Shown: positions 2,681-57,803 of the stretch, in pieces | Layout: every line of letters starts with the position of its first letter | How positions within the stretch are numbered: position 1 is the first letter of the stretch | Origin: Candidatus Gottesmanbacteria bacterium | GTDB taxonomy: Bacteria > Patescibacteriota > Microgenomatia > UBA10105 > UBA927 | Assembly: GCA_016214885.1 (NCBI GenBank) | Contig: JACRMP010000005.1 | Span: forward strand, 6,725-70,724 | Length of the DNA: 64,000 nucleotides | Direction: 5' to 3' | Made by a program: the position numbers and the translations under genes | The notes under the pieces: generated by a model | Databases searched by the model: none | What the model was told of the DNA's origin: nothing | The model's input: only the letters and a program-made list of their open reading frames with translations

Positions 2681-3721
2681 TTATCCGGATATCGCTTTCT
2701 TTTCATCCTCTTCATGGAGCATCTGTGTCTGGGACAACTTCTGCCCCATCAGGGAAAATGATCCCGACACCGTATTCATGGAATTATATGCGTTATTTAT
2801 ATGCTTGCCCAACACGCCCAAATTTTCTTCTATCTTCCCGTAATCTTTTTGTATTGCCCGGAGCAACTGGAATATATGGCGCGACTTTTGCTCCAGATCT
2901 TTTCCCTGAAACGACAAAAGCAATACCTGTAAATGTGCATACAGTGTATTGGGAGAAACAGGATACACCCGGAGCTTCCGGGCATAATCCATAAGTTCTT
3001 CCATATTCGCCATTTCGTAATACACGCCCTCACTCGGAATATACATGAGAGCAAAATCCATGGTTCCCTCCTCCGGGAGAATATATTTCCTGCTGATATC
3101 GGCTACATGTTTTTTGACGTCAGCCACAAAATCTTTCTTCGCGGCATTGCGGAGCGCTTCTGTTTCGCCTTTATGCATTTTGGAAAAATTCTCCATGGGA
3201 AATTTGGAATCTACACACAGCAGTCCCGCATCGGTTTTCAGCACCGCATCCACTTTCATCCCGGATTTAAATGCATACTGTAAATGAAACGAATTTTTAG
3301 GGAACGTCTGCCCGATCATATCCTGCAGAACCTGCTCACCAATATTGCCCCTGAGCTTCGGAGACTGCAGAAATTCCTGAAGACTCCGAATACCTTTGCC
3401 CACCTCCGACATTTCCCCCAGATTCTGCTTAAGATCCCCGATGACACGGGCAGCCGTATCCAGCCGGTCATTTAACTGCTTAGTGTTTGTCTGGAGTAAT
3501 CTGCTTACGTCAGAGGTTTGCCCCCTCATGGCTTCGTTTAACGCCTTATTGGTATTTTCGATGGAAATCTGCATGGACTTAAGCCATTCAGTAAGGGCAG
3601 TATCATCACGTTTTTCTGAAAGCGTAACTATCTCCCTTTTGACAAGAAACAGCAGCACACCAAAACCCGATACAATGACAAAAATGAGGATAAAAAAGTC
3701 GGGAGTCATGCTGGCACCCAT
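2681..3721 (-). CDS. rmuC: DNA recombination protein RmuC
   Basis: N-terminal TM helix and coiled-coil, then a conserved RmuC C-terminal region (KTDAGLLCVDSKFPMENF...ILPEEGTMDFALMYIPSEGVYYE). The start was chosen at an internal Met (MGASM); the ORF-track start at 3778 is also possible. Confidence 0.75.
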   Translation of the reverse strand: MGASMTPDFFILIFVIVSGFGVLLFLVKREIVTLSEKRDDTALTEWLKSMQISIENTNKALNEAMRGQTSDVSRLLQTNTKQLNDRLDTAARVIGDLKQNLGEMSEVGKGIRSLQEFLQSPKLRGNIGEQVLQDMIGQTFPKNSFHLQYAFKSGMKVDAVLKTDAGLLCVDSKFPMENFSKMHKGETEALRNAAKKDFVADVKKHVADISRKYILPEEGTMDFALMYIPSEGVYYEMANMEELMDYARKLRVYPVSPNTLYAHLQVLLLSFQGKDLEQKSRHIFQLLRAIQKDYGKIEENLGVLGKHINNAYNSMNTVSGSFSLMGQKLSQTQMLHEEDEKKAISG

Positions 3722-4316: not shown

Positions 4317-4592
4317 ATGTATATGGAAAAAAAAGATTATATAATCGGACGGACCTATCGTTTACCAATAGACGACAGCACCCATGATGTGACCCTTATC
4401 AACATGGAAGGAGATAACGCACGGGTACTCATTCAAAATCATTCTATAGATATGTCGCTCCATGGATTTACCCCGAGGAAAAAAATGTATTCCCAAGCAG
4501 TACCGGTGCGGGTAGTGCCCCTTACAGCACTGCAGGAAATAGAAGAACCAAAAACCAAACGTGGATTAACTTGCTGGAGGAGGGTAAAATAA
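4317..4592 (+). CDS. hypothetical protein (91 aa), immediately upstream of metG
   Basis: ORF ends 4 nt before the metG start. No recognisable motif. Confidence 0.35.
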   Translation: MYMEKKDYIIGRTYRLPIDDSTHDVTLINMEGDNARVLIQNHSIDMSLHGFTPRKKMYSQAVPVRVVPLTALQEIEEPKTKRGLTCWRRVK

Positions 4593-4596
4593 GCCT

Positions 4597-6051
4597 ATGA
4601 ACAAAAAGTTCTATATCACCTGCGCTATTCCTTATGTCAATGCAGCTCCCCACATCGGACATGCACTGGAGTTTGTGCAGGGTGATGTTGTAGCCCGCTT
4701 CCACCGGCTATTGGGGGAAGAAACAATTCTGCTTTCAGGAGGCGATGAGAATGCTTTAAAAAACGTGCAGGCGGCAGAAAAGGCAGGCGTACCCGTCCAG
4801 CAATTCATTGACGAAAATAATGTTAAATTTCTGGAATTAACCAGGTCATTGGGCTGCCAATTCGACGTATGGCAAAAGGGCAGCGACACGGCACGCCACT
4901 TTCCCGCCAGCCAAAAATTGTGGAACCTCTGCGACAAAGCGGGAGATATCTACAAAAAATCCTACGAAGGCCTGTATTGTGTCGGTTGTGAGACATTCTA
5001 TGAGCCGGAAGAATTAAATGAACAGGGTGAATGCTTCGAGCACCCAGGCAAAAAACTGGAATCAGTGAAAGAAGAAAATTATTTTTTCCGCCTTTCTAAA
5101 TACCAATCAAAAATTATTGATCTCATCACATCGGGAAATCTCGCGATCACGCCGGAAACAAGAAAAAACGAAGTGTTGTCGTTTCTCAAGCAGCCGCTTC
5201 AGGACATAAGTATTTCCCGGAGCAACGAACGCGCCAAAAACTGGGGCGTCCCCGTGCCGAACGATGCAACCCAACGGATGTATGTGTGGTTTGATGCGCT
5301 CAACATTTACCAGTCGGGTATCGGCTTCGGGTGGGATGATGAAAAATACAAAAAATGGTGGCCTGCTGATGTCCATGTCATCGGCAAAGGGATAAGCCGC
5401 TTCCATGCGGTGTATTGGCCGGCATTTTTGCTTTCTGCAGGGCTCCCCACCCCCAGGGCGCTGTTTGTCCATGGATATTTTACGGTAAACGGTCAGAAGA
5501 TGAGTAAAACTTTAGGCAACGTCATAGACCCCAATGAGCTTATCGCTAAATACGGCAATGATCCACTCCGGTATTATTTCCTCCGCGAAATTCCGGCTAC
5601 CAGTGACGGGGATTTCTCGGAACGCAGGTTCAGAGAACTGTATAACGCCGAATTGGCAAACGGTCTGGGCAACTTTACCGCGAGAGTGGCAAAGCTTTGT
5701 GAACAATCAAAAATTACCGTTGCTTCTTATACATCCGATTTTCCTTCAGTCATACAGAAATATGAATTACTTCACAAACAATTAGCGCAATCACGATTTG
5801 ACGAATACATCAAGTCAATTCAGCTCTTCATCGCAGGATGGGATCAGTCTCTGGAAGAGAATAAACCCTGGCAATACAAAGATAATATTGAAGAAAATCT
5901 GCCGGGCTATTTATCGACACTCATTACAGCTGTCCGCGACACTGCCGAACTACTCCGTCCGATAATCCCCGAAACAGCTGAAAAAATTCTGGCGCAATAT
6001 TCCGGAGCATCAATCACGTCAGAAAAACCCATGTTTCCGCGCCTCCCGTAA
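4597..6051 (+). CDS. metG: methionyl-tRNA synthetase (short form, no C-terminal dimerisation domain)
   Basis: HIGH motif (PHIGHA), KMSKT motif and the class I anticodon-binding region. Confidence 0.95.
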   Translation: MNKKFYITCAIPYVNAAPHIGHALEFVQGDVVARFHRLLGEETILLSGGDENALKNVQAAEKAGVPVQQFIDENNVKFLELTRSLGCQFDVWQKGSDTARHFPASQKLWNLCDKAGDIYKKSYEGLYCVGCETFYEPEELNEQGECFEHPGKKLESVKEENYFFRLSKYQSKIIDLITSGNLAITPETRKNEVLSFLKQPLQDISISRSNERAKNWGVPVPNDATQRMYVWFDALNIYQSGIGFGWDDEKYKKWWPADVHVIGKGISRFHAVYWPAFLLSAGLPTPRALFVHGYFTVNGQKMSKTLGNVIDPNELIAKYGNDPLRYYFLREIPATSDGDFSERRFRELYNAELANGLGNFTARVAKLCEQSKITVASYTSDFPSVIQKYELLHKQLAQSRFDEYIKSIQLFIAGWDQSLEENKPWQYKDNIEENLPGYLSTLITAVRDTAELLRPIIPETAEKILAQYSGASITSEKPMFPRLP

Positions 6052-23394: not shown

Positions 23395-24447
23395 ATGAAG
23401 ATCCTTGCCATCGAATCATCGTGCGATGAGACTGCGGCGTCCGTCGTAGTTGATGGCGTCCGAGTACTCAGTAATGTTGTCGCAAGTAGCCGGCAAATGC
23501 ATGAAAAATACGGCGGCATTGTACCGGAAGTTGCCGCCCGCATGCAGTTATCCTCCATTATTCCCACTATCACTGAAGCCTTGCTCCCTATAGGTGACCC
23601 GTCAGAATCATTACTACACCGTATCACCAAACACATAGATGCCATAGCGGTCACCATAGGGCCAGGGCTCATCGGCTCGCTGCTTGTCGGAGTAGAAACG
23701 GCAAAAACCATTGCCATGGCAACCCGCAAACCGGTTATCCCCGTCAATCATGTGCTCGCTCATATGTACGCAAACTTTATTGATACCCGTAATCCTATTC
23801 AGTTCCCGGCAATTTCTCTGGTCGTTTCCGGCGGACACACCGAGCTCTACCTTATGGAATCCCCGGAAAAACTCACCTGGTTAGGCGGCACCATAGACGA
23901 TGCAGCGGGAGAATGCTTTGATAAAACAGCCAGACTTCTGGGCTTTGGGCATGGAGGAGGAGTTGCCATACAGAATGCAGCCCGGTTAAGCCGCAGCATA
24001 GGTAAACCGGTGCTTCCGCGGCCGATGCTAGATAAAGAAAACGCGCTGAACTTTTCGTTCAGCGGCTTAAAGACGGCAATACTCCGGCAAACCCAAAAAC
24101 TCCAATCGGCTGGTCTTTGGAACGATGTTGCCATTGCAGATCTTTCGTATGAAGTTCAGGAAGCAATCACTGACGTACTGGTGAAAAAAACACTCCGGGC
24201 GTTAAACTTGCATCACGCATCAACCATACTTCTATCCGGAGGAGTATCTGCAAATACCCGCCTAAGAGAAAAATTCAATGAGCGAATACAGGAAACCGGT
24301 ATGGCAATTACCCTTCACGCACCTCCGGTACCGCTGTGCACGGATAATGCGGTATACATAGGAAGCTACGCACATTTCCGGGGGAATCCGGTATCATGGC
24401 AAGAAATTAACGCATTTCCTGATTTATCGGTGGAAGTAAGGAGCTGA
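23395..24447 (+). CDS. tsaD: tRNA N6-adenosine threonylcarbamoyltransferase TsaD (Kae1/Gcp)
   Basis: MKILAIESSCDETAASVV N-terminus and conserved His/metal-binding motifs. Start moved to the internal ATG at 23395. Confidence 0.9.
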   Translation: MKILAIESSCDETAASVVVDGVRVLSNVVASSRQMHEKYGGIVPEVAARMQLSSIIPTITEALLPIGDPSESLLHRITKHIDAIAVTIGPGLIGSLLVGVETAKTIAMATRKPVIPVNHVLAHMYANFIDTRNPIQFPAISLVVSGGHTELYLMESPEKLTWLGGTIDDAAGECFDKTARLLGFGHGGGVAIQNAARLSRSIGKPVLPRPMLDKENALNFSFSGLKTAILRQTQKLQSAGLWNDVAIADLSYEVQEAITDVLVKKTLRALNLHHASTILLSGGVSANTRLREKFNERIQETGMAITLHAPPVPLCTDNAVYIGSYAHFRGNPVSWQEINAFPDLSVEVRS

Positions 24448-24943
24448 TAATTTCCGCTTCCTCCCTACTCCAGGGAGAATACGGATCAGGATTATTTTTG
24501 ATATCAGCAAGAAATGCCCCCCACTCCATCCATTTCCACTCTTCGGTTTCTAGGAGGTTAGGGATTGGATCATTGTCGGTAAATCCCACCAGGATAGGAC
24601 AAATTTCGTTTTCGACAATCCCGTTTTTATCCGCGAACCGGTACCGGTAGGGAGCAATCTCACGCAGTGTTACCCCGGTAATTCCCAGTTCTTCTTTTAA
24701 CCTTCGCTCCGCTGCGGCCACGGGTGTTTCATTAACTGACAAATGTCCACATACCGCGTTAGTCCAGACCCCGGGAAATGTTTTCTTCGTGGAAGCCCGC
24801 TTGGTAAGCAATACCTGATTTTTAGTATTAAACAAAAATAACGAAAACGCCCGGTGAAGCGGAGTGTCTTTGGTATGCACCGTATCTTTATCCGCGGTGC
24901 CGATTGGCATATTAGCATCATCAACTAAAACAACTAATTCCAT
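24407..24943 (-). CDS. idi: isopentenyl-diphosphate delta-isomerase type 1 (Nudix fold)
   Basis: HRAFSLFLFN...TNAVCGHLSVNETPVAAAERRLKEELGI with the conserved Cys and Glu of IDI-1. Confidence 0.75.
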   Translation of the reverse strand: MELVVLVDDANMPIGTADKDTVHTKDTPLHRAFSLFLFNTKNQVLLTKRASTKKTFPGVWTNAVCGHLSVNETPVAAAERRLKEELGITGVTLREIAPYRYRFADKNGIVENEICPILVGFTDNDPIPNLLETEEWKWMEWGAFLADIKNNPDPYSPWSREEAEIISSLLPPINQEMR

Positions 24944-24974
24944 ATGTGTAGTAGTGAATTAAAAAATATATAGT

Positions 24975-25031
24975 ATCACCTTGGTGAGTCAGCTTGGGAT
25001 CATCCCCTCGACATCTATCTTATAGCGGATA
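24975..25031 (-). other. degenerate duplicate of the tRNA 3' half (anticodon-stem/variable-loop/acceptor arm), ending in an encoded CACCA. Putative relic att repeat.
   Basis: Reverse strand CTATAAGATAGATGTC...GATCCCAAGCTGACtCACCA shares 15-nt and 14-nt blocks with the adjacent tRNA 3' half but has a scrambled T-arm. Confidence 0.45.
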
Positions 25032-25046
25032 CGTATTTATTGTAAG

Positions 25047-25118
25047 TGGGTCAGCTTGGGATCGGACCAAGGACATCTATCTTATAAGGATAGCGCTCTA
25101 CCACTGAGCTACTGACCC
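25047..25118 (-). tRNA. tRNA-Ile(UAU)-like tRNA gene (anticodon loop CUUAUAA), unusual T-loop TCCGATC, CCA not encoded
   Basis: Manual cloverleaf on the reverse strand. Acceptor GGGTCAG/CTGACCC, D-arm GCTC-AGTGGTA-GAGC, anticodon stem CTATC/GATAG and T-stem CTTGG/CCAAG all pair perfectly. Confidence 0.6.
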
Positions 25119-25354
25119 TAAATTCTTAATTTTAAAAATCTTCTACCAAATCCTGTTTTAAAATACTTTTCTCGTTTAATTGCCTTCTTTTCATCTAAAC
25201 ATGCTTCATAATATATCAAATCAAACGGTCTTCTGTGTTTCGTTGAATTAACGCCACCTTTATTATGCTCATTAATCCTTCTTCTTAAATCATTACAAAA
25301 ACCTATATATAAATCATTATCTTTACGACTTCGCAATACGTATGTATAAAACAT
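25118..25354 (-). CDS. GIY-YIG nuclease-domain protein (YhbQ/UPF0213-like)
   Basis: FYTYVLRSRKDNDLYIGFCNDLRRRINEHN...KHRRPFDLIYYE...AIKREKYFK motifs of the GIY-YIG family. The stop codon abuts the tRNA 5' end. Confidence 0.75.
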   Translation of the reverse strand: MFYTYVLRSRKDNDLYIGFCNDLRRRINEHNKGGVNSTKHRRPFDLIYYEACLDEKKAIKREKYFKTGFGRRFLKLRI

Positions 25355-25463
25355 ACACTGACCTGCCCGCAACGCCTGAGCAAGCTCATGCTTGCGATGG
25401 CGGGCGGGGCTACTGACCCGGGGTACGGTATAGATTGTATCAAAGGAGAAGAACGCGTGCTAC

Positions 25464-26861
25464 CTAGGGCTGTAGGAGTTCTTCCATGCGGGCTTCGATC
25501 TCGAGGGAGCGCTTTTTATTTTTTGCAAAAATAATAAATGAAAACTTCTGCATACGCAGCAAATTTTCACTGGTAAGAATTAAGCCCTCTTTTGTGTCCT
25601 TATCAAACAATATCGGATGTAACCGCTCTTTGAGACTCAAAAACGTTTGCCGCTTAAGCTGTGGGATCATGTAGCCATTATTGGAAAAAAGATACGTATC
25701 AAACATAAAATTATCTCCAAAAAGCGCAACCGCCGTCGTATACACAAACGTTCCGCCGGTGCTTCTTACATTGGATTCCGCAACATATATTTCACCGTTT
25801 TTTCCTGCAACATAATCCACATCAAAATATCCACGGTAACCGCTGGCCGCAAACCGCTCCGCTATATAAAATCCGGTATCCTTAATCCGCGCCGCCACCC
25901 GTTCCGGCATTATGTCGTGACCGATTTCAATACCGTGGAAAGCACCCTCCTTGGTTACTAGCACCCCACAGTGATACAGGAAATCAATGTGTCCGTTTCT
26001 GTTAATTTTAAATTCCACATTCGGGTTACCTCCGGCTATCGTACTGCTTATCTGAATTAATTTTTCTATGATAATCGGAAACTGCTGCCAATATGCATCC
26101 TTATTAAGCAGGGCATAAATTTTTGCCTGGCATGCATGATACTCATTTGGCAAATCCCCTTCCCTGAATATTTCCACTCCCATGCCAGAATGCCCTTTAT
26201 TTGTTTTTATGACTACTCCCTGTTCTTTCACATACCGTATCGCGGCAATTTTTGATGCGTCCTCTATGCCGAAACAGATAACACCATCTGCCATTTTAAA
26301 GTCAGGCTCTTCATTGCCGCTTTGTTGGGCAAGCTGACGGATACCTGACTTACTGCCATAAAAATTAACCGTCCAGGCATCCTCCTCATCGGGAGCTTCA
26401 GGCGTCACGATGGTTAACCCTTTCTCACGAAGCGCCTTCACGAGATATAAAAACGGTTGGCTCACCGAATAGCTTGTCATCGTAAGTTTCTTAGATGAAT
26501 TTGCCGCTTCGACCAACGAATTCATAATAGACGGATCGTGCAGGATATCTTCACAGATTACTCCGCTATGTTGTGCGGTCGTCAACACACTTAAACGGGT
26601 ATTGGGGAAAAGTGAACGGAAATAATCCAGAAATTCCTTGCTTACTCCCTGGGGGGTAATATATAAAACGTCGTTATCCTCACCGGAGAACTGGAACATC
26701 CGAACGTCTCCCAAATAGCCGTTTTCCACAATTTCCGCAGACTTTGCATTCGGGTCGGACATGGCAGAGATAAACGGCCATACGTCTTCCGACATGTTAA
26801 AAATGTAGACTAAAACGTTATGTTTTTTTTCGGAGGAAGTATCCTCAGGAAGTTGACTCAT
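25464..26861 (-). CDS. ATP-grasp-fold domain protein (hypothetical ligase)
   Basis: Central VIKTNKGHSGMGVEIF and C-terminal YFDVDYVAGKNGEIYVAESNVRSTGG (E-x-N) ATP-grasp-like signatures. Confidence 0.45.
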   Translation of the reverse strand: MSQLPEDTSSEKKHNVLVYIFNMSEDVWPFISAMSDPNAKSAEIVENGYLGDVRMFQFSGEDNDVLYITPQGVSKEFLDYFRSLFPNTRLSVLTTAQHSGVICEDILHDPSIMNSLVEAANSSKKLTMTSYSVSQPFLYLVKALREKGLTIVTPEAPDEEDAWTVNFYGSKSGIRQLAQQSGNEEPDFKMADGVICFGIEDASKIAAIRYVKEQGVVIKTNKGHSGMGVEIFREGDLPNEYHACQAKIYALLNKDAYWQQFPIIIEKLIQISSTIAGGNPNVEFKINRNGHIDFLYHCGVLVTKEGAFHGIEIGHDIMPERVAARIKDTGFYIAERFAASGYRGYFDVDYVAGKNGEIYVAESNVRSTGGTFVYTTAVALFGDNFMFDTYLFSNNGYMIPQLKRQTFLSLKERLHPILFDKDTKEGLILTSENLLRMQKFSFIIFAKNKKRSLEIEARMEELLQP

Positions 26862-56129: not shown

Positions 56130-57803
56130 TTAACATTCCCCTGTGGCGCAACGGTAGCGCAGCTTCCTGTTAAGAAGACGGTTGTAGGTTCGAATCCTAC
56201 CGGGGGAGCAAACTTCGTTCACTGCGAGTTCTATAAACTGCAGCGGTTTTTCTAAATTCACCCGTACAGTTTTGTTGTAAAGCTCTAGGTTCGAACCAAG
56301 CCCCGCTAAAATCTCCCTCTTTGTTTGTGTGTCTCCATTGGCAAACCAATAACGCGCGTGACAAGCGAAGTCGAAAGTTTTCTCAGCGGTCTCTCTCCAT
56401 GTCTCGGTCTGATATCTGTTCCCTCCAAGTTTTTCAGTTATTATATTTTTTTCTTTGGTCAGTCGTTCTTTTTCTGCTCGATATTCTTCGTCACTGATAA
56501 GAATGCCGTCCGCGTTTTGCGGAGATATTCTAAGATTCAAAAGGTTATTTAGACGAGTTTCTATATCTGTATTCGCTGATTGAAGAGATTTCAGTGTAGC
56601 CAAATTTTCCTCCGACTCTCTATCATTCAGTTCGTTCAGATATTTTATTGCCCAATTTTTGAAGCGCTCCGAGACTTGGAGCTTTGCGAGGGTTTTATCA
56701 AATTCTTTGTCTAACTCTTCAACTCGGATGCTCTTTTGGATGCAGTTTTGATTTTTGTGTTTGGTGCAGTGGTAATAAACATAATGCAGAAGTGTTGGAT
56801 TTTTCATTTCTTCGATTGAGGTTTTACATTTCGGACAAGCGTCCTTGTTTTGAGAAGCGAACTTGTTTTTGCATTTAGAGCATATTATTTGAAACTTTTC
56901 TTCTGCAGTAATAGTCGCATGGCATTCACCACATTCTAGAAGTCCTGTATACGCAAATGACCGAGTGTGTGGTCGAGGTCTTCCTTTTCTTCCAAGCAAT
57001 CTTTGCACCTTGTCGAATTCTTCTTTGGTAATCATTGGCTGATGTTTGCCTTTGCGCCAAATTCCGCTTCCAGTCGGATACTCAAAGTCTCCGTAATAAA
57101 AGGGGTCTATTAGCGTTTTGTATATTTGACTTCTCGTCATTGGTTTTCCACCTATCCGTTTATGCTTGGGAGTCCTATAGCCCCATTCGTCGTTTAGAAG
57201 TCGTAATATTTGCATGACCGTATACGTTCCCGTGAGCATGCAATCCCACGCTTTGCGTATTAGCGGAAATCTATCTGGGTCAACTAAGATGGTTTTGTTT
57301 CCCTTTTCTGCATACTTGTCGTTCATATAACCAGCTTTAGCACCGCTGGGGAGCCAGCCATTCTCTGCTTTTGTATTGAGACCTCGCTTGACGTTTTTTG
57401 AGAGGTCATCTACAAATTTTTGTGCCACACCAAACTCTAGATACATGAGAATGCTATTCTCGTTTGATTGATTGAAGGTTTGCGAAGGAGTTACTATGTC
57501 TATGCCATTTTGTTTTATTGCCCAAATAATACTCCCACCATCGATAGGATTTCTGGCGAGACGGTCAAGCTTCCAACTGATAATTCCTTGAGCCTCTCCA
57601 GCTAAAACTCGTCGAATCATTTCATTGAAGACAGGCCTACCGGGTTCCTTGGCTGACTGAGATTCTTGAAAGGGTTTTTCAGCAACATCAAGATTCAGCC
57701 TTTTTGCCAAGCTTTTGAGTTCTTCAATTTGAGAGCCGATAGACAATACCTGTCTGTCTTCGCTTTCACTAGATTTTCTGGCGTAAATGAAGTATTTACT
57801 CAT
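56130..57803 (-). CDS. large serine recombinase (resolvase/invertase N-terminal catalytic domain + recombinase domain + Zn-ribbon + coiled-coil). The annotated C-terminus reads antisense through tRNA-Asn.
   Basis: N-terminus YARKSSESEDRQVLSIGSQ (catalytic Ser) ...DRLARN. Cys-rich CGECHATITAEEKFQIICSKCKNK...CPKC Zn-ribbon. The C-terminal peptide SPGRIRTYN is the antisense reading of the tRNA T-arm. Confidence 0.85.
   Translation of the reverse strand: MSKYFIYARKSSESEDRQVLSIGSQIEELKSLAKRLNLDVAEKPFQESQSAKEPGRPVFNEMIRRVLAGEAQGIISWKLDRLARNPIDGGSIIWAIKQNGIDIVTPSQTFNQSNENSILMYLEFGVAQKFVDDLSKNVKRGLNTKAENGWLPSGAKAGYMNDKYAEKGNKTILVDPDRFPLIRKAWDCMLTGTYTVMQILRLLNDEWGYRTPKHKRIGGKPMTRSQIYKTLIDPFYYGDFEYPTGSGIWRKGKHQPMITKEEFDKVQRLLGRKGRPRPHTRSFAYTGLLECGECHATITAEEKFQIICSKCKNKFASQNKDACPKCKTSIEEMKNPTLLHYVYYHCTKHKNQNCIQKSIRVEELDKEFDKTLAKLQVSERFKNWAIKYLNELNDRESEENLATLKSLQSANTDIETRLNNLLNLRISPQNADGILISDEEYRAEKERLTKEKNIITEKLGGNRYQTETWRETAEKTFDFACHARYWFANGDTQTKREILAGLGSNLELYNKTVRVNLEKPLQFIELAVNEVCSPGRIRTYNRLLNRKLRYRCATGEC
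56136..56207 (+). tRNA. tRNA-Asn(GUU)
   Basis: Manual cloverleaf: acceptor TCCCCTG/CGGGGGA, D-arm GCGC-AACGGTA-GCGC, anticodon loop CUGUUAA, T-arm GTAGG-TTCGAAT-CCTAC. TATAAT at ~56114. Confidence 0.8.

Follow-up and report, generated by a model that had tools for sequence, protein, structure and literature searches.

Why does a tRNA gene in the genome of a Candidatus Gottesmanbacteria bacterium stand among broken copies of itself, with the gene of a small nuclease in between? The question is raised by a 64-kb stretch of contig JACRMP010000005.1 (in the following the window, i.e., the whole stretch of DNA that was analyzed), in which a gene for tRNA-Ile with the anticodon UAU is directly preceded by an open reading frame (ORF) for a GIY-YIG nuclease of 78 amino acids and, further upstream, by a GC-rich palindrome. 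We propose, with a probability of about 70%, that the nuclease gene and the palindrome form a homing-type selfish cassette which invaded the resident tRNA-Ile(UAU) gene, hijacks its promoter, and leaves behind or brings along a working tRNA. As judged from sequence comparisons, cassettes of this family appear to be widespread at tRNA genes across the candidate phyla radiation (CPR) and are apparently undescribed.

Layout of the tRNA-Ile(UAU) locus

Read on the minus strand, a promoter-like box is followed by nucleotides (nt) 1-11 of tRNA-Ile(UAU), the palindrome, nt 12-17 of the tRNA, the GIY-YIG ORF, the intact tRNA-Ile(UAU), 13 nt, and a decayed copy of tRNA nt ~27-76:

25464: stop codon of the ATP-grasp-like gene, the upstream neighbor on the minus-strand reading
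25434..25442, minus strand: extended -10 promoter-like box TGATACAAT, read from the sequence, 14 nt ahead of the 5' tRNA fragment
25443-25434, minus strand: the same box with one more base, TTGATACAAT, then 14 nt to the 5' fragment
25409..25419, minus strand: part 1 of the 5' fragment, tRNA nt 1-11, GGGTCAGTAGC, 11/11 identity
25362..25408, minus strand: 47-nt GC-rich imperfect palindrome CCCGCCCGCCATCGCAAGCATGAGCTTGCTCAGGCGTTGCGGGCAGG, exactly between fragment nt 11 and 12
25356..25361, minus strand: part 2 of the 5' fragment, tRNA nt 12-17, TCAGTG, which resumes exactly where part 1 ends
25355, minus strand: single base between part 2 of the 5' fragment and the ATG of the ORF
25118..25354, minus strand: GIY-YIG ORF, 78 codons (25354-25121) plus the stop codon TAG (25120-25118)
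25046..25118, minus strand: intact tRNA-Ile(UAU), from ARAGORN and Rfam
24982..25032, minus strand: 3' remnant of a tRNA-Ile(UAU), nt ~27-76, from a repeat finder and local alignment
24943: start of the NUDIX gene, 38 nt beyond the 3' remnant

The original position of the tRNA, behind the TGATAYAAT box, now holds only nt 1-17, split between nt 11 and 12. Relative to the promoter this is the place where the tRNA itself is found in relatives with an empty site (L084, L088, and L090; L-numbers are labels of the loci compared). The cassette occupies the transcribed 5' side of the tRNA gene, the old tRNA is broken, and a complete tRNA stands after the ORF; the DNA inserted at the locus amounts to only ~0.3 kb.

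A first-pass annotation, made from the letters of the window alone, had described a copy of the first 11 nt of the tRNA on the far side of the nuclease gene. The copy exists, but at 25409-25419 and not at ~25421-25431, i.e., 12 nt from where it had been placed. Taken alone the 11-mer is not significant, since 11 of 100 shuffles give at least two matches with at most one mismatch. It gains its meaning from the context, because it continues past the palindrome as nt 12-17 and because the same layout recurs in 40 of 60 homologous loci. It is also correct that the ORF is bracketed by tRNA-derived sequence, although the palindrome between the copy and its continuation had been overlooked. The ORF had been given as 84 amino acids from a TTG at 25372; homologues are nearly all 78 amino acids long and begin with MFYTY or MYYTY, and the real ORF has 78 codons from the ATG at 25354.

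The tRNA-Ile(UAU) gene is real and its anticodon had been read correctly. In the 64 kb ARAGORN calls a tRNA-Ile(tat) (25046-25118, minus strand) and a tRNA-Asn (56137-56209) and no others, and the Rfam tRNA model scores 67.8 bits on the former (E 4.8e-14). CCA is not encoded, the gene ending in CTGACCCA followed by CTTAC, and the T-loop (25056-25062) has the atypical sequence TCCGATC with a C at the usual U55, both as described before. The same T-loop is present in L081, L084, L088, and L090, and as TCCGATT in L083. As the whole T-arm GGTCCGATCC also occurs in the lone tRNA-Ile(UAU) of the empty-site relatives L084, L088, and L090, the T-loop has nothing to do with the insertion. It is neither a defect nor a by-product of the insertion and represents a lineage-specific oddity of this one tRNA at empty and occupied loci alike. 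In L087 the T-loop reads ATCGTCA, with A at position 54 and T at position 58, a swap of the two, and the tRNA-Asn of the same window has the canonical TTCGAAT. The remark that tRNA-Ile(UAU) is uncommon holds for bacteria in general, one example being Mycoplasma mobile (PMC3575796), yet all relatives at this locus and several unrelated CPR loci have it.

The duplicate of the 3' half downstream of the tRNA is genuine as well. Positions 24984-25024 match 25046-25086 with 83% identity over 41 nt, and the local alignment spans tRNA positions 27-73 with a score that none of 100 shuffles reaches. In the T-arm of this remnant an 8-nt block is replaced (GAGGGGAT where the tRNA has CTTGGTCC), the anticodon loop has 8 nt, that is one extra base, and the remnant ends in CTGACTCACCA. 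That it ends in CACCA, as had been pointed out, is perhaps partly coincidence: CTGACTCAC in the remnant is CTGACCCAC of the tRNA with one substitution, after which both sequences diverge. The junction at the start of the remnant (AAATACGTnnCnG / CTATAAGAT) is homologous to the junction ahead of the intact 3' half in L083. Remnant and junction favor the insertion of a cassette into what had been the anticodon region of an earlier tRNA.

TGATAYAAT or TGGTATAAT stands 9-13 nt ahead of the lone tRNA-Ile(UAU) in L084, L087, L088, and L090 and ahead of the 5' fragment in L081. In the window, as in L081, it is the 5' fragment and not the intact tRNA that follows the promoter-like box. We infer that boxes of this type function as promoters. 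A simple sigma-70 scan did not list the box at 25434..25442; the sole sigma-70-like match in the region lies at 24965-24992 on the minus strand, ahead of the NUDIX gene, with CTGACT (the acceptor strand of the 3' remnant) as -35 and TATATT as -10 element, and the match count is not above the shuffle expectation. At the downstream end of the ORF the stop codon TAG shares its G with nt 1 of the tRNA (25118-25120). A cut by RNase P at tRNA nt 1 would leave an mRNA that ends in ...AUUUA and has lost its complete stop codon, which resembles the tRNA punctuation of mitochondria. Elsewhere 0-7 nt separate ORF and tRNA, or the ORF extends into the tRNA (L054, L062, and L066).

The locus in close relatives and at other tRNA genes

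Orthologous loci were found via homologues of the neighboring ATP-grasp protein with 72-90% identity. The neighbors of the cassette in the window are ATP-grasp, TraG-like, NUDIX, and TsaD genes, and the gene order TraG-like / ATP-grasp / tRNA-Ile(UAU) / NUDIX / TsaD is conserved in the relatives. This comparison had been named beforehand as a test, and it reveals an insertion polymorphism with empty, ORF-less, and occupied sites. The site is empty with a lone tRNA in L084 (83% ATP-grasp identity), L087 (80%), L088 and L089 (79%), and L090 (72%), where ORF, palindrome, and tRNA fragments are all absent. In L083 (87%) an intact tRNA, bordered by an inverted repeat of 11 nt, lies 72 nt after tRNA nt 1-36 and 53 nt before tRNA nt 33-73, and ORF and palindrome are both absent. 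L081, L082, L085, and L086 (89%) also have no ORF; here the 5' fragment has the acceptor sequence GGGTGTG versus GGGGCCA in the intact tRNA, a decayed palindrome sits at nt 20 and not at nt 11, and an unrelated ORF of 164 amino acids comes after the tRNA. At one and the same locus the palindrome sits at nt 11 in the window and at nt 20 in L081 and is missing from L083, and the acceptor stems of the functional tRNAs differ among the relatives (GGGTCAG, GGGGCCA, GGGGCCG, GGGCGCG, GGGTCCG, and GGGCCCG). The differing acceptor stems fit a repeated replacement of the tRNA, and these comparisons show that the site was hit more than once. The interval between tRNA and NUDIX gene looks like a local insertion hot spot, with the 164-amino-acid ORF in L081 (5132-5626), an ORF of 100 amino acids in L087 (4029-4331), and an aromatic-lyase gene on the opposite strand in L088 (3987-5489).

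For the wider comparison the contigs of one genome per species in GTDB were scanned, which gave at least 531 relatives, and the best 80 loci were fetched. These ORF-centered loci are biased toward the closest relatives of the window protein; all sequences are metagenome assemblies and some taxon labels of the contigs look unreliable. Among the 75 loci with at least 90 nt past the stop codon, a tRNA on the same strand follows the ORF within 10 nt in 37 and within 130 nt in 59. At least 18 anticodons are represented (Lys, Asn, Gln, Ile-UAU, Val, Met, His, Pro, Arg, Thr, Phe, Leu, and Ala). In 40 of 60 loci the ORF is preceded by tRNA nt 1 to N (N = 5-22), 35-73 nt of inserted GC-rich sequence, and the continuation of the tRNA for 6-16 nt exactly from N+1, and the window fits this split-fragment layout with N = 11. 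In the least decayed cases (L083, L120, L053, and L107) the upstream fragment extends to ~nt 34-37 and the downstream fragment begins at ~nt 33-39. Therefore, ORF and tRNA occupy the former anticodon loop of an older tRNA, with the palindrome 15-25 nt upstream in its D-arm region. Downstream 3' remnants were also found in L013, L031, L039, L048, L065, L018, L073, L076, and L120. The intact copy differs from the fragments in L013, L073, L076, and L120 (tRNA-Val), in L081, and in L028 (a galE-like gene), and at these loci it is of foreign origin.

Polymorphism among relatives and recurrence of the layout in many CPR genomes bear out the suggestion of a GIY-YIG-associated insertion, which the first-pass annotation had put beside that of an integrase-mediated event at the tRNA. 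Classical sites of integration include tRNA genes, and many islands are bordered by partial tRNA repeats. The scar of such an island is, however, extremely unlikely here, and so is a plain local duplication or pseudogene with the ORF as a chance neighbor. The lack of significance of the 11-nt repeat alone would suit these explanations, but the identical layout is found in dozens of unrelated loci, there is no integrase or other recombinase domain in the conserved neighborhood, and synteny is retained. The insert is with ~0.3 kb very small, and the repeats have the wrong geometry for attL and attR, with the 5' part of the tRNA on the upstream side and the 3' two-thirds 13 nt beyond the intact tRNA. 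Phages and integrative and conjugative elements which target tRNA genes resemble the cassette in their target, in the restoration of the gene by carried tRNA sequence, and in the partial repeats left behind. The cassette differs from them by its size, the absence of an integrase, 5'-end repeats interrupted by a palindrome, and variable junctions.

A number of loci depart from the common layout. In L059 (2752-3058) ORF and palindrome stand directly before a transfer-messenger RNA (tmRNA) gene (Rfam 56.6 bits; end of the tag peptide ADNFALAA), the palindrome being inserted at the tRNA-like 5' end of the tmRNA. In L072 (1730-2090) a palindrome-bounded ORF splits a GxxExxY-family gene exactly at NEL|GFGFLESVY without duplication, and in L028 (2340-2760) a 33-nt 5' fragment of the galE-like gene (MKILVTGGAGY) is followed by the element and then by the full gene with a different nucleotide sequence. 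Intact tRNAs between short inverted repeats were seen in L083 (5040-5180, GTGTGTGATAC/GTATCACACAC) and in the reverse complement of L120 (~650-800, CCCCGTTAGATTT/AAATCTAACGGGG). The inverted repeats around intact tRNAs (L083, L120, L073, and L076) are not always the GC-rich palindrome, and the tRNAs between them are placed within an older tRNA, in its anticodon loop or D-loop, which suggests ORF-less tRNA cassettes that replace resident tRNAs. Whole units (fragment, palindrome, fragment, with or without ORF) are arranged in tandem in L015, L064, L095, L031, L048, and L051, either by repeated invasion or as an assembly effect. Contigs with the cassette that are labeled as uncultured Gammaproteobacteria, Bdellovibrionales, Desulfobacterales, Margulisiibacteriota, or Proteobacteria (L001, L005-L007, L016, L017, L019, L023, L072, L079, and others) may reflect unreliable labels, contaminated bins, or occurrence of the cassette beyond CPR.

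A group I intron or a member of another Rfam family in the palindrome or ORF region was rejected, as only the tRNA is found in 24000-26500 at E ≤10. By the same method a true group I intron (78.7 bits) is detected in the tRNA of L038. In this locus (2764-3004) the tRNA after the ORF has the intron (RF00028) in its anticodon loop, and a match to LOOT RNA lies at 4491-4619. The tRNA after the ORF of L069 (~2790-3000) likewise has a group I intron in the anticodon loop, with the motif CAGAGACTA and with Rfam families below the gathering score. Because of these introns ARAGORN missed both tRNAs. In the window a weak sroE-like Rfam match inside the ATP-grasp gene (26358-26448, minus strand; 22.9 bits versus a gathering score of 51, E 0.028) is most likely due to chance.

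The nuclease and its palindrome

The protein encoded by the ORF matches Pfam PF01541 with 63.8 bits (cut-off 22.6, E 1.8e-17, residues 1-69), and an identical protein (100%) is annotated in Candidatus Gottesmanbacteria. About 1,570 clusters formed at 90% identity match at E ≤1e-5, most of them exactly 78 amino acids long and 65-82% identical. Invariant in 31 sequences are Y3, Y5, Y16, G18, R26, H30, and E62, the residues of the GIY-YIG catalytic motif. The proteins have a conserved basic tail, KTGFGRRFLKxRI, with KTGFGR..L as its invariant part. The AlphaFold2 model (predicted local distance difference test score 95) has three strands and helices in the alpha/beta GIY-YIG fold. Foldseek gives 1zg2 (UPF0213 BH0048) as the top match, with template modeling scores of 0.71 for Slx1 and 0.52 for the catalytic domain of I-TevI; the family profile searched against PDB finds 1zg2 (E 9e-8), 1ywl (EF2693; E 3.7e-6), and Slx1 (E 0.012), followed by UvrC and I-TevI. 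Sequence and model both indicate a bare catalytic domain of the Slx1/UPF0213-like branch. A C-terminal DNA-binding module of the Seg/I-TevI type is absent, and the protein consists of the catalytic domain and the 12-residue basic tail. Nothing in NCBIfam scores above cut-off (TIGR01453, group I intron endonuclease, 22.1 bits versus 56), and the homing-endonuclease families of PHROG match only at E 1e-3. We also rejected a phage origin, as 50,697 phage records yield only homologues with less than 45% identity, and a defense system, as the PADLOC families give no match.

The nuclease is under strong purifying selection. Synonymous sites are saturated across 78 ORFs (mean proportion of synonymous differences 0.78), the closest pairs of ORFs have ratios of nonsynonymous to synonymous substitution rates (dN/dS) of 0.05-0.19, and 78 of 81 ORFs pass a test for an intact full-length frame. 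From the invariant residues, the dN/dS ratios, and the confidently predicted fold, the enzyme is predicted to be functional.

Such selection, together with high conservation across CPR phyla, would also be expected of a conserved housekeeping factor that acts in tRNA-gene maintenance, transcript processing, or DNA repair and is co-transcribed with tRNAs, the fragments being incidental to local rearrangement. The consistent co-orientation and tight spacing with the tRNA agree with this view, and the UPF0213/Slx1-like branch has been regarded as repair-related. Nevertheless we hold a host function of this kind to be very unlikely, since the gene occurs at a given locus in some close relatives and not in others, adjoins 18 different tRNA species, and is found inside protein-coding genes as well. 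Copies in tandem or nested in one another, decayed remnants of the ORF, and displaced pieces of genes are typical of mobile elements. The UPF0213 or bacterial Slx1-like proteins (BH0048, 1zg2; EF2693, 1ywl; PMC1564403) share size class and fold with the nuclease and give the best profile and structure matches. They are regarded as vertically inherited repair factors, whereas the CPR subfamily has the basic tail and behaves as a mobile cassette. The classification paper (PMC1564403) describes the Slx1-like branch without a link to tRNA genes or mobility.

The palindrome is predicted to form a hairpin within a 101-nt fold of -33.7 kcal/mol. A covariance model of it, R1, has its sole match in the 64-kb window at 25361-25409 (62.8 bits, E ~1e-11), and in ~395 kb of flanks from the 80 loci it matches almost only within ~100 nt of the ORFs, either upstream or between ORF and tRNA. 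The consensus in one orientation is CCCGCCCGCC-A(T)CGCAAGC...GCTTGC...GGCGTTGCGGGCGGG. In the 12 loci with the variant of the window the palindrome is 96% identical, versus 66% for the ORFs and 47% for their third codon positions. This far higher conservation points either to a very strong constraint or to a spread independent of the ORF. The basal stems are invariant and show no covariation. Selection on an RNA structure was rejected for the lack of compensatory changes in these stems, and by eye the apical stem alone varies (GCAAG/CTTGC versus GCGAG/CTCGC). A role of the palindrome, in its reverse complement, as promoter or terminator was rejected as well, as a terminator-like T run is absent and the only promoter-like site lies in the 3' remnant and is not above chance.

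Both orientations relative to the ORF occur (28 versus 18, and 17 versus 17 in a palindrome-centered metagenome sample), and the related loci L009 and L057 have opposite orientations at the same tRNA site, nt 9. The insertion is precise, with target bases neither duplicated nor lost. Palindromes are nested in L018 and L065; the ORF lies inside the apex of the palindrome in L019, L055, L072, L079, and L028, and in L073 and L076 the apex contains a whole tRNA, with the element sitting in the D-loop of another tRNA-Val. A palindrome-centered scan of 76 copies gave 38 with an ORF within 120 nt, 29 without an ORF, and 9 at contig ends. Most palindromes without an ORF are embedded in the 5' fragment of a tRNA, with an intact tRNA following after a few tens of nt. 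The palindrome outlives the ORF. In the spacer of L107 the 3' end of the ORF survives with a frameshift (nhmmer E 3.8e-4) as the only significant ORF remnant; the nhmmer profile finds none in L139, L096, and L120, and the impression by eye that L139 and L096 are deletion derivatives is unproven.

Most likely the palindrome is a cis site that is recognized at the DNA level by an oligomer of the nuclease. We favor a DNA-level site because the palindrome is symmetric, indifferent to orientation, and invariant in sequence, and because the ORF lies in its apex at some loci. It could be the cleavage or homing site, could mark the cleavage site in the stub or protect it from renewed cleavage, could break up the direct repeat that allows precise excision, or could stabilize the RNA or the mRNA end. 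The small GIY-YIG restriction enzymes Eco29kI and Cfr42I read the GC-rich palindrome CCGCGG as oligomers (PMC2241918, PMC1952068). With them there is a precedent for the reading of a symmetric GC-rich site by a domain-only GIY-YIG enzyme, but they carry insertions and extensions that form the recognition surface and have a partner methyltransferase. A CCGCGG site is not present in our palindrome.

The precision of these insertions raises the thought of an autonomous palindrome-bounded transposon, in which the palindrome, with or without an ORF or a tRNA in its apex, is the mobile unit and the nuclease excises or copies it; on the whole we find this rather improbable. Such an element would insert precisely into loop-forming DNA such as tRNA genes, and the tRNA halves and extra copies would be by-products of the rescue of an essential tRNA, which we likewise tend to doubt. 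The palindrome does enter varied tRNA positions (nt 5-22, anticodon loop, variable loop) without duplication or deletion, is found nested, and differs in position between close relatives at the locus of the window. Forms bearing an ORF between the two palindrome halves split the GxxExxY gene precisely and occur in non-tRNA contexts, forms bearing a tRNA sit in the D-loop of another tRNA, and in L147 a tRNA-His is interrupted by the palindrome alone. However, solo palindromes away from GIY-YIG ORFs and tRNAs are rare, with one copy in the 64-kb window, strand transfer by GIY-YIG nucleases is not known, and the position of the ORF outside an intact palindrome in most loci is left unexplained. 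The flips in orientation can come from inversion between the arms at a fixed site, as in L009 and L057. In its boldest form the idea would be that nuclease and palindrome by themselves form a new class of mobile system: an enzyme made of the GIY-YIG domain alone which recognizes and moves its own palindrome, empty or with an ORF or tRNA in the apex, precisely and without target duplication, into loop-forming DNA of tRNA, tmRNA, and some protein genes, and which drives serial replacement of tRNA genes across CPR. From the sequences this is a possible but doubtful proposition. Dispersed miniature inverted-repeat elements (REP-RAYT, RPE, or IS200/IS605-derived PATE) were rejected, with one copy in the 64-kb window, few solo copies in 80 loci, and no TnpA or RAYT seen.

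The tRNA-His(GTG) gene of L147 (11600-11710, minus strand) is complete and interrupted only by a 47-nt palindrome between G19 and T20. Without the palindrome it folds into a perfect cloverleaf, and the 11.7-kb contig has no other tRNA. Either the gene was inactivated only recently, or the case hints at a palindrome that the RNA loses or can tolerate. It is a possibility that otherwise intact tRNAs of this kind are still used, and the palindrome would then be a new kind of bacterial tRNA intervening sequence. Bacterial 23S rRNA has ORF-bearing, stem-bounded intervening sequences. Hairpin-like tRNA introns that transpose are cited for Thermoproteales archaea (PMC10714607). Like the palindrome, both are short stem-forming inserts at many positions of structured RNA genes, sometimes with an ORF in the apex. 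They are removed from the RNA by splicing endonuclease or RNase III, whereas here most palindromes lie in dead tRNA fragments and L147 is the sole candidate for such a removal.

A proposed homing-type cassette and its possible meaning for CPR genomes

How would a homing-type selfish cassette produce this locus? The nuclease, probably as an oligomer, would break the DNA in or beside the tRNA gene, and in the repair an occupied allele or locus would serve as template, from which the ORF is copied along with the palindrome and, as a rule, an entire tRNA, i.e., homing with co-conversion as in SegB of phage T4 (PMC2330249). The resident tRNA would be left as a 5' stub and sometimes also as a 3' stub. 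The ORF would be transcribed from the captured tRNA promoter, with the RNase P cut at tRNA nt 1 releasing the ORF transcript or defining its 3' end. For the host the cassette would be hard to lose: simple loss would be selected against because the working tRNA, now downstream, depends on the upstream promoter. Both the cleavage target and the role of the palindrome we infer from the arrangement of the loci. Presence and absence of the gene at the same site together with degenerate copies (the remnant in L107) are found as expected for a homing endonuclease, and intact genes that differ from the flanking fragments (L081, L013, L120, and L028) are indirect traces in line with co-conversion.

Several points weigh against the homing-type cassette. 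In the window, as in most loci, the 5' fragment does not differ from the intact tRNA, and such identity fits a target duplication upon insertion as well as the import of a foreign copy. Neither a cleavage activity nor a target is known, and for a catalytic domain of 78 amino acids without a DNA-binding domain site-specific homing is not assured. In most loci an intact palindrome adjoins an intact nuclease gene, which is awkward if the palindrome is the cleavage target. Long-term purifying selection with saturated synonymous sites is unusual for a purely selfish homing gene and leaves room for a role beneficial to the host. With the nhmmer profile no ORF remnant was found in L081 and L083, so that former carriage of the ORF is unsupported there. 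Strict specialization of ORF lineages on tRNA types was rejected, as the clustering is weak (16 of 61 nearest neighbors versus 6.3 expected).

The closest known parallel in behavior is given by free-standing GIY-YIG genes of the T4 SegB type (PMC2330249; PMC13096335), whose nuclease gene also lies among or beside tRNA genes. SegB is inherited together with a flanking tRNA by break and repair ('intronless homing'), and its presence differs between related genomes (PMC2330249). The Seg and I-TevI enzymes have 200-250 amino acids and a C-terminal DNA-binding domain, in contrast to the 78 amino acids of the CPR protein from the Slx1/UPF0213 branch. Unlike the seg genes, the CPR nuclease gene is chromosomal and is accompanied by an ultra-conserved palindrome and by its target in a split copy. 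A further parallel is found in mitochondria. In atp6 of Allomyces macrogynus a GIY-YIG ORF element inserts and brings a replacement for the part of the gene that it displaces. There too the resident gene is left as a fragment and the foreign fused copy is functional, as it would be in L028, L013, L120, and L081. In the cassette, however, the target is the 5' part of tRNA genes and not the 3' end of a protein gene, a palindrome is involved, and the hosts are bacteria and not organelles.

A full-text literature search found no description of the arrangement of nuclease, palindrome, and tRNA. The CPR literature reports rRNA introns with homing endonucleases and mentions GIY-YIG genes in passing among transferred genes. 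As a selfish nuclease gene of the homing type the element is of a known kind, with a real chance, though, that palindrome and nuclease together represent a new class of mobile element. The 96% identity of the palindrome against synonymous saturation in the ORF points to a tight recognition pair of protein and DNA or of protein and RNA, and the pair might serve as a very small sequence- or structure-specific nuclease.

If our reading is true, hundreds to thousands of genes for 'GIY-YIG nuclease family protein' in CPR/Patescibacteria would be explained as a selfish cassette that invades tRNA genes. This cassette would be built from the smallest known kind of GIY-YIG nuclease, in the UPF0213/Slx1-like branch that has so far been treated as housekeeping repair. 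It would provide a mechanism for the turnover of tRNA genes, would account for pseudo-tRNA fragments in streamlined genomes with mostly single-copy tRNAs, and would be a source of tRNA mis-annotation in metagenome-assembled genomes. Beside the rRNA introns it would be another case in which genes for structured RNAs are the preferred home of mobile elements in CPR bacteria.

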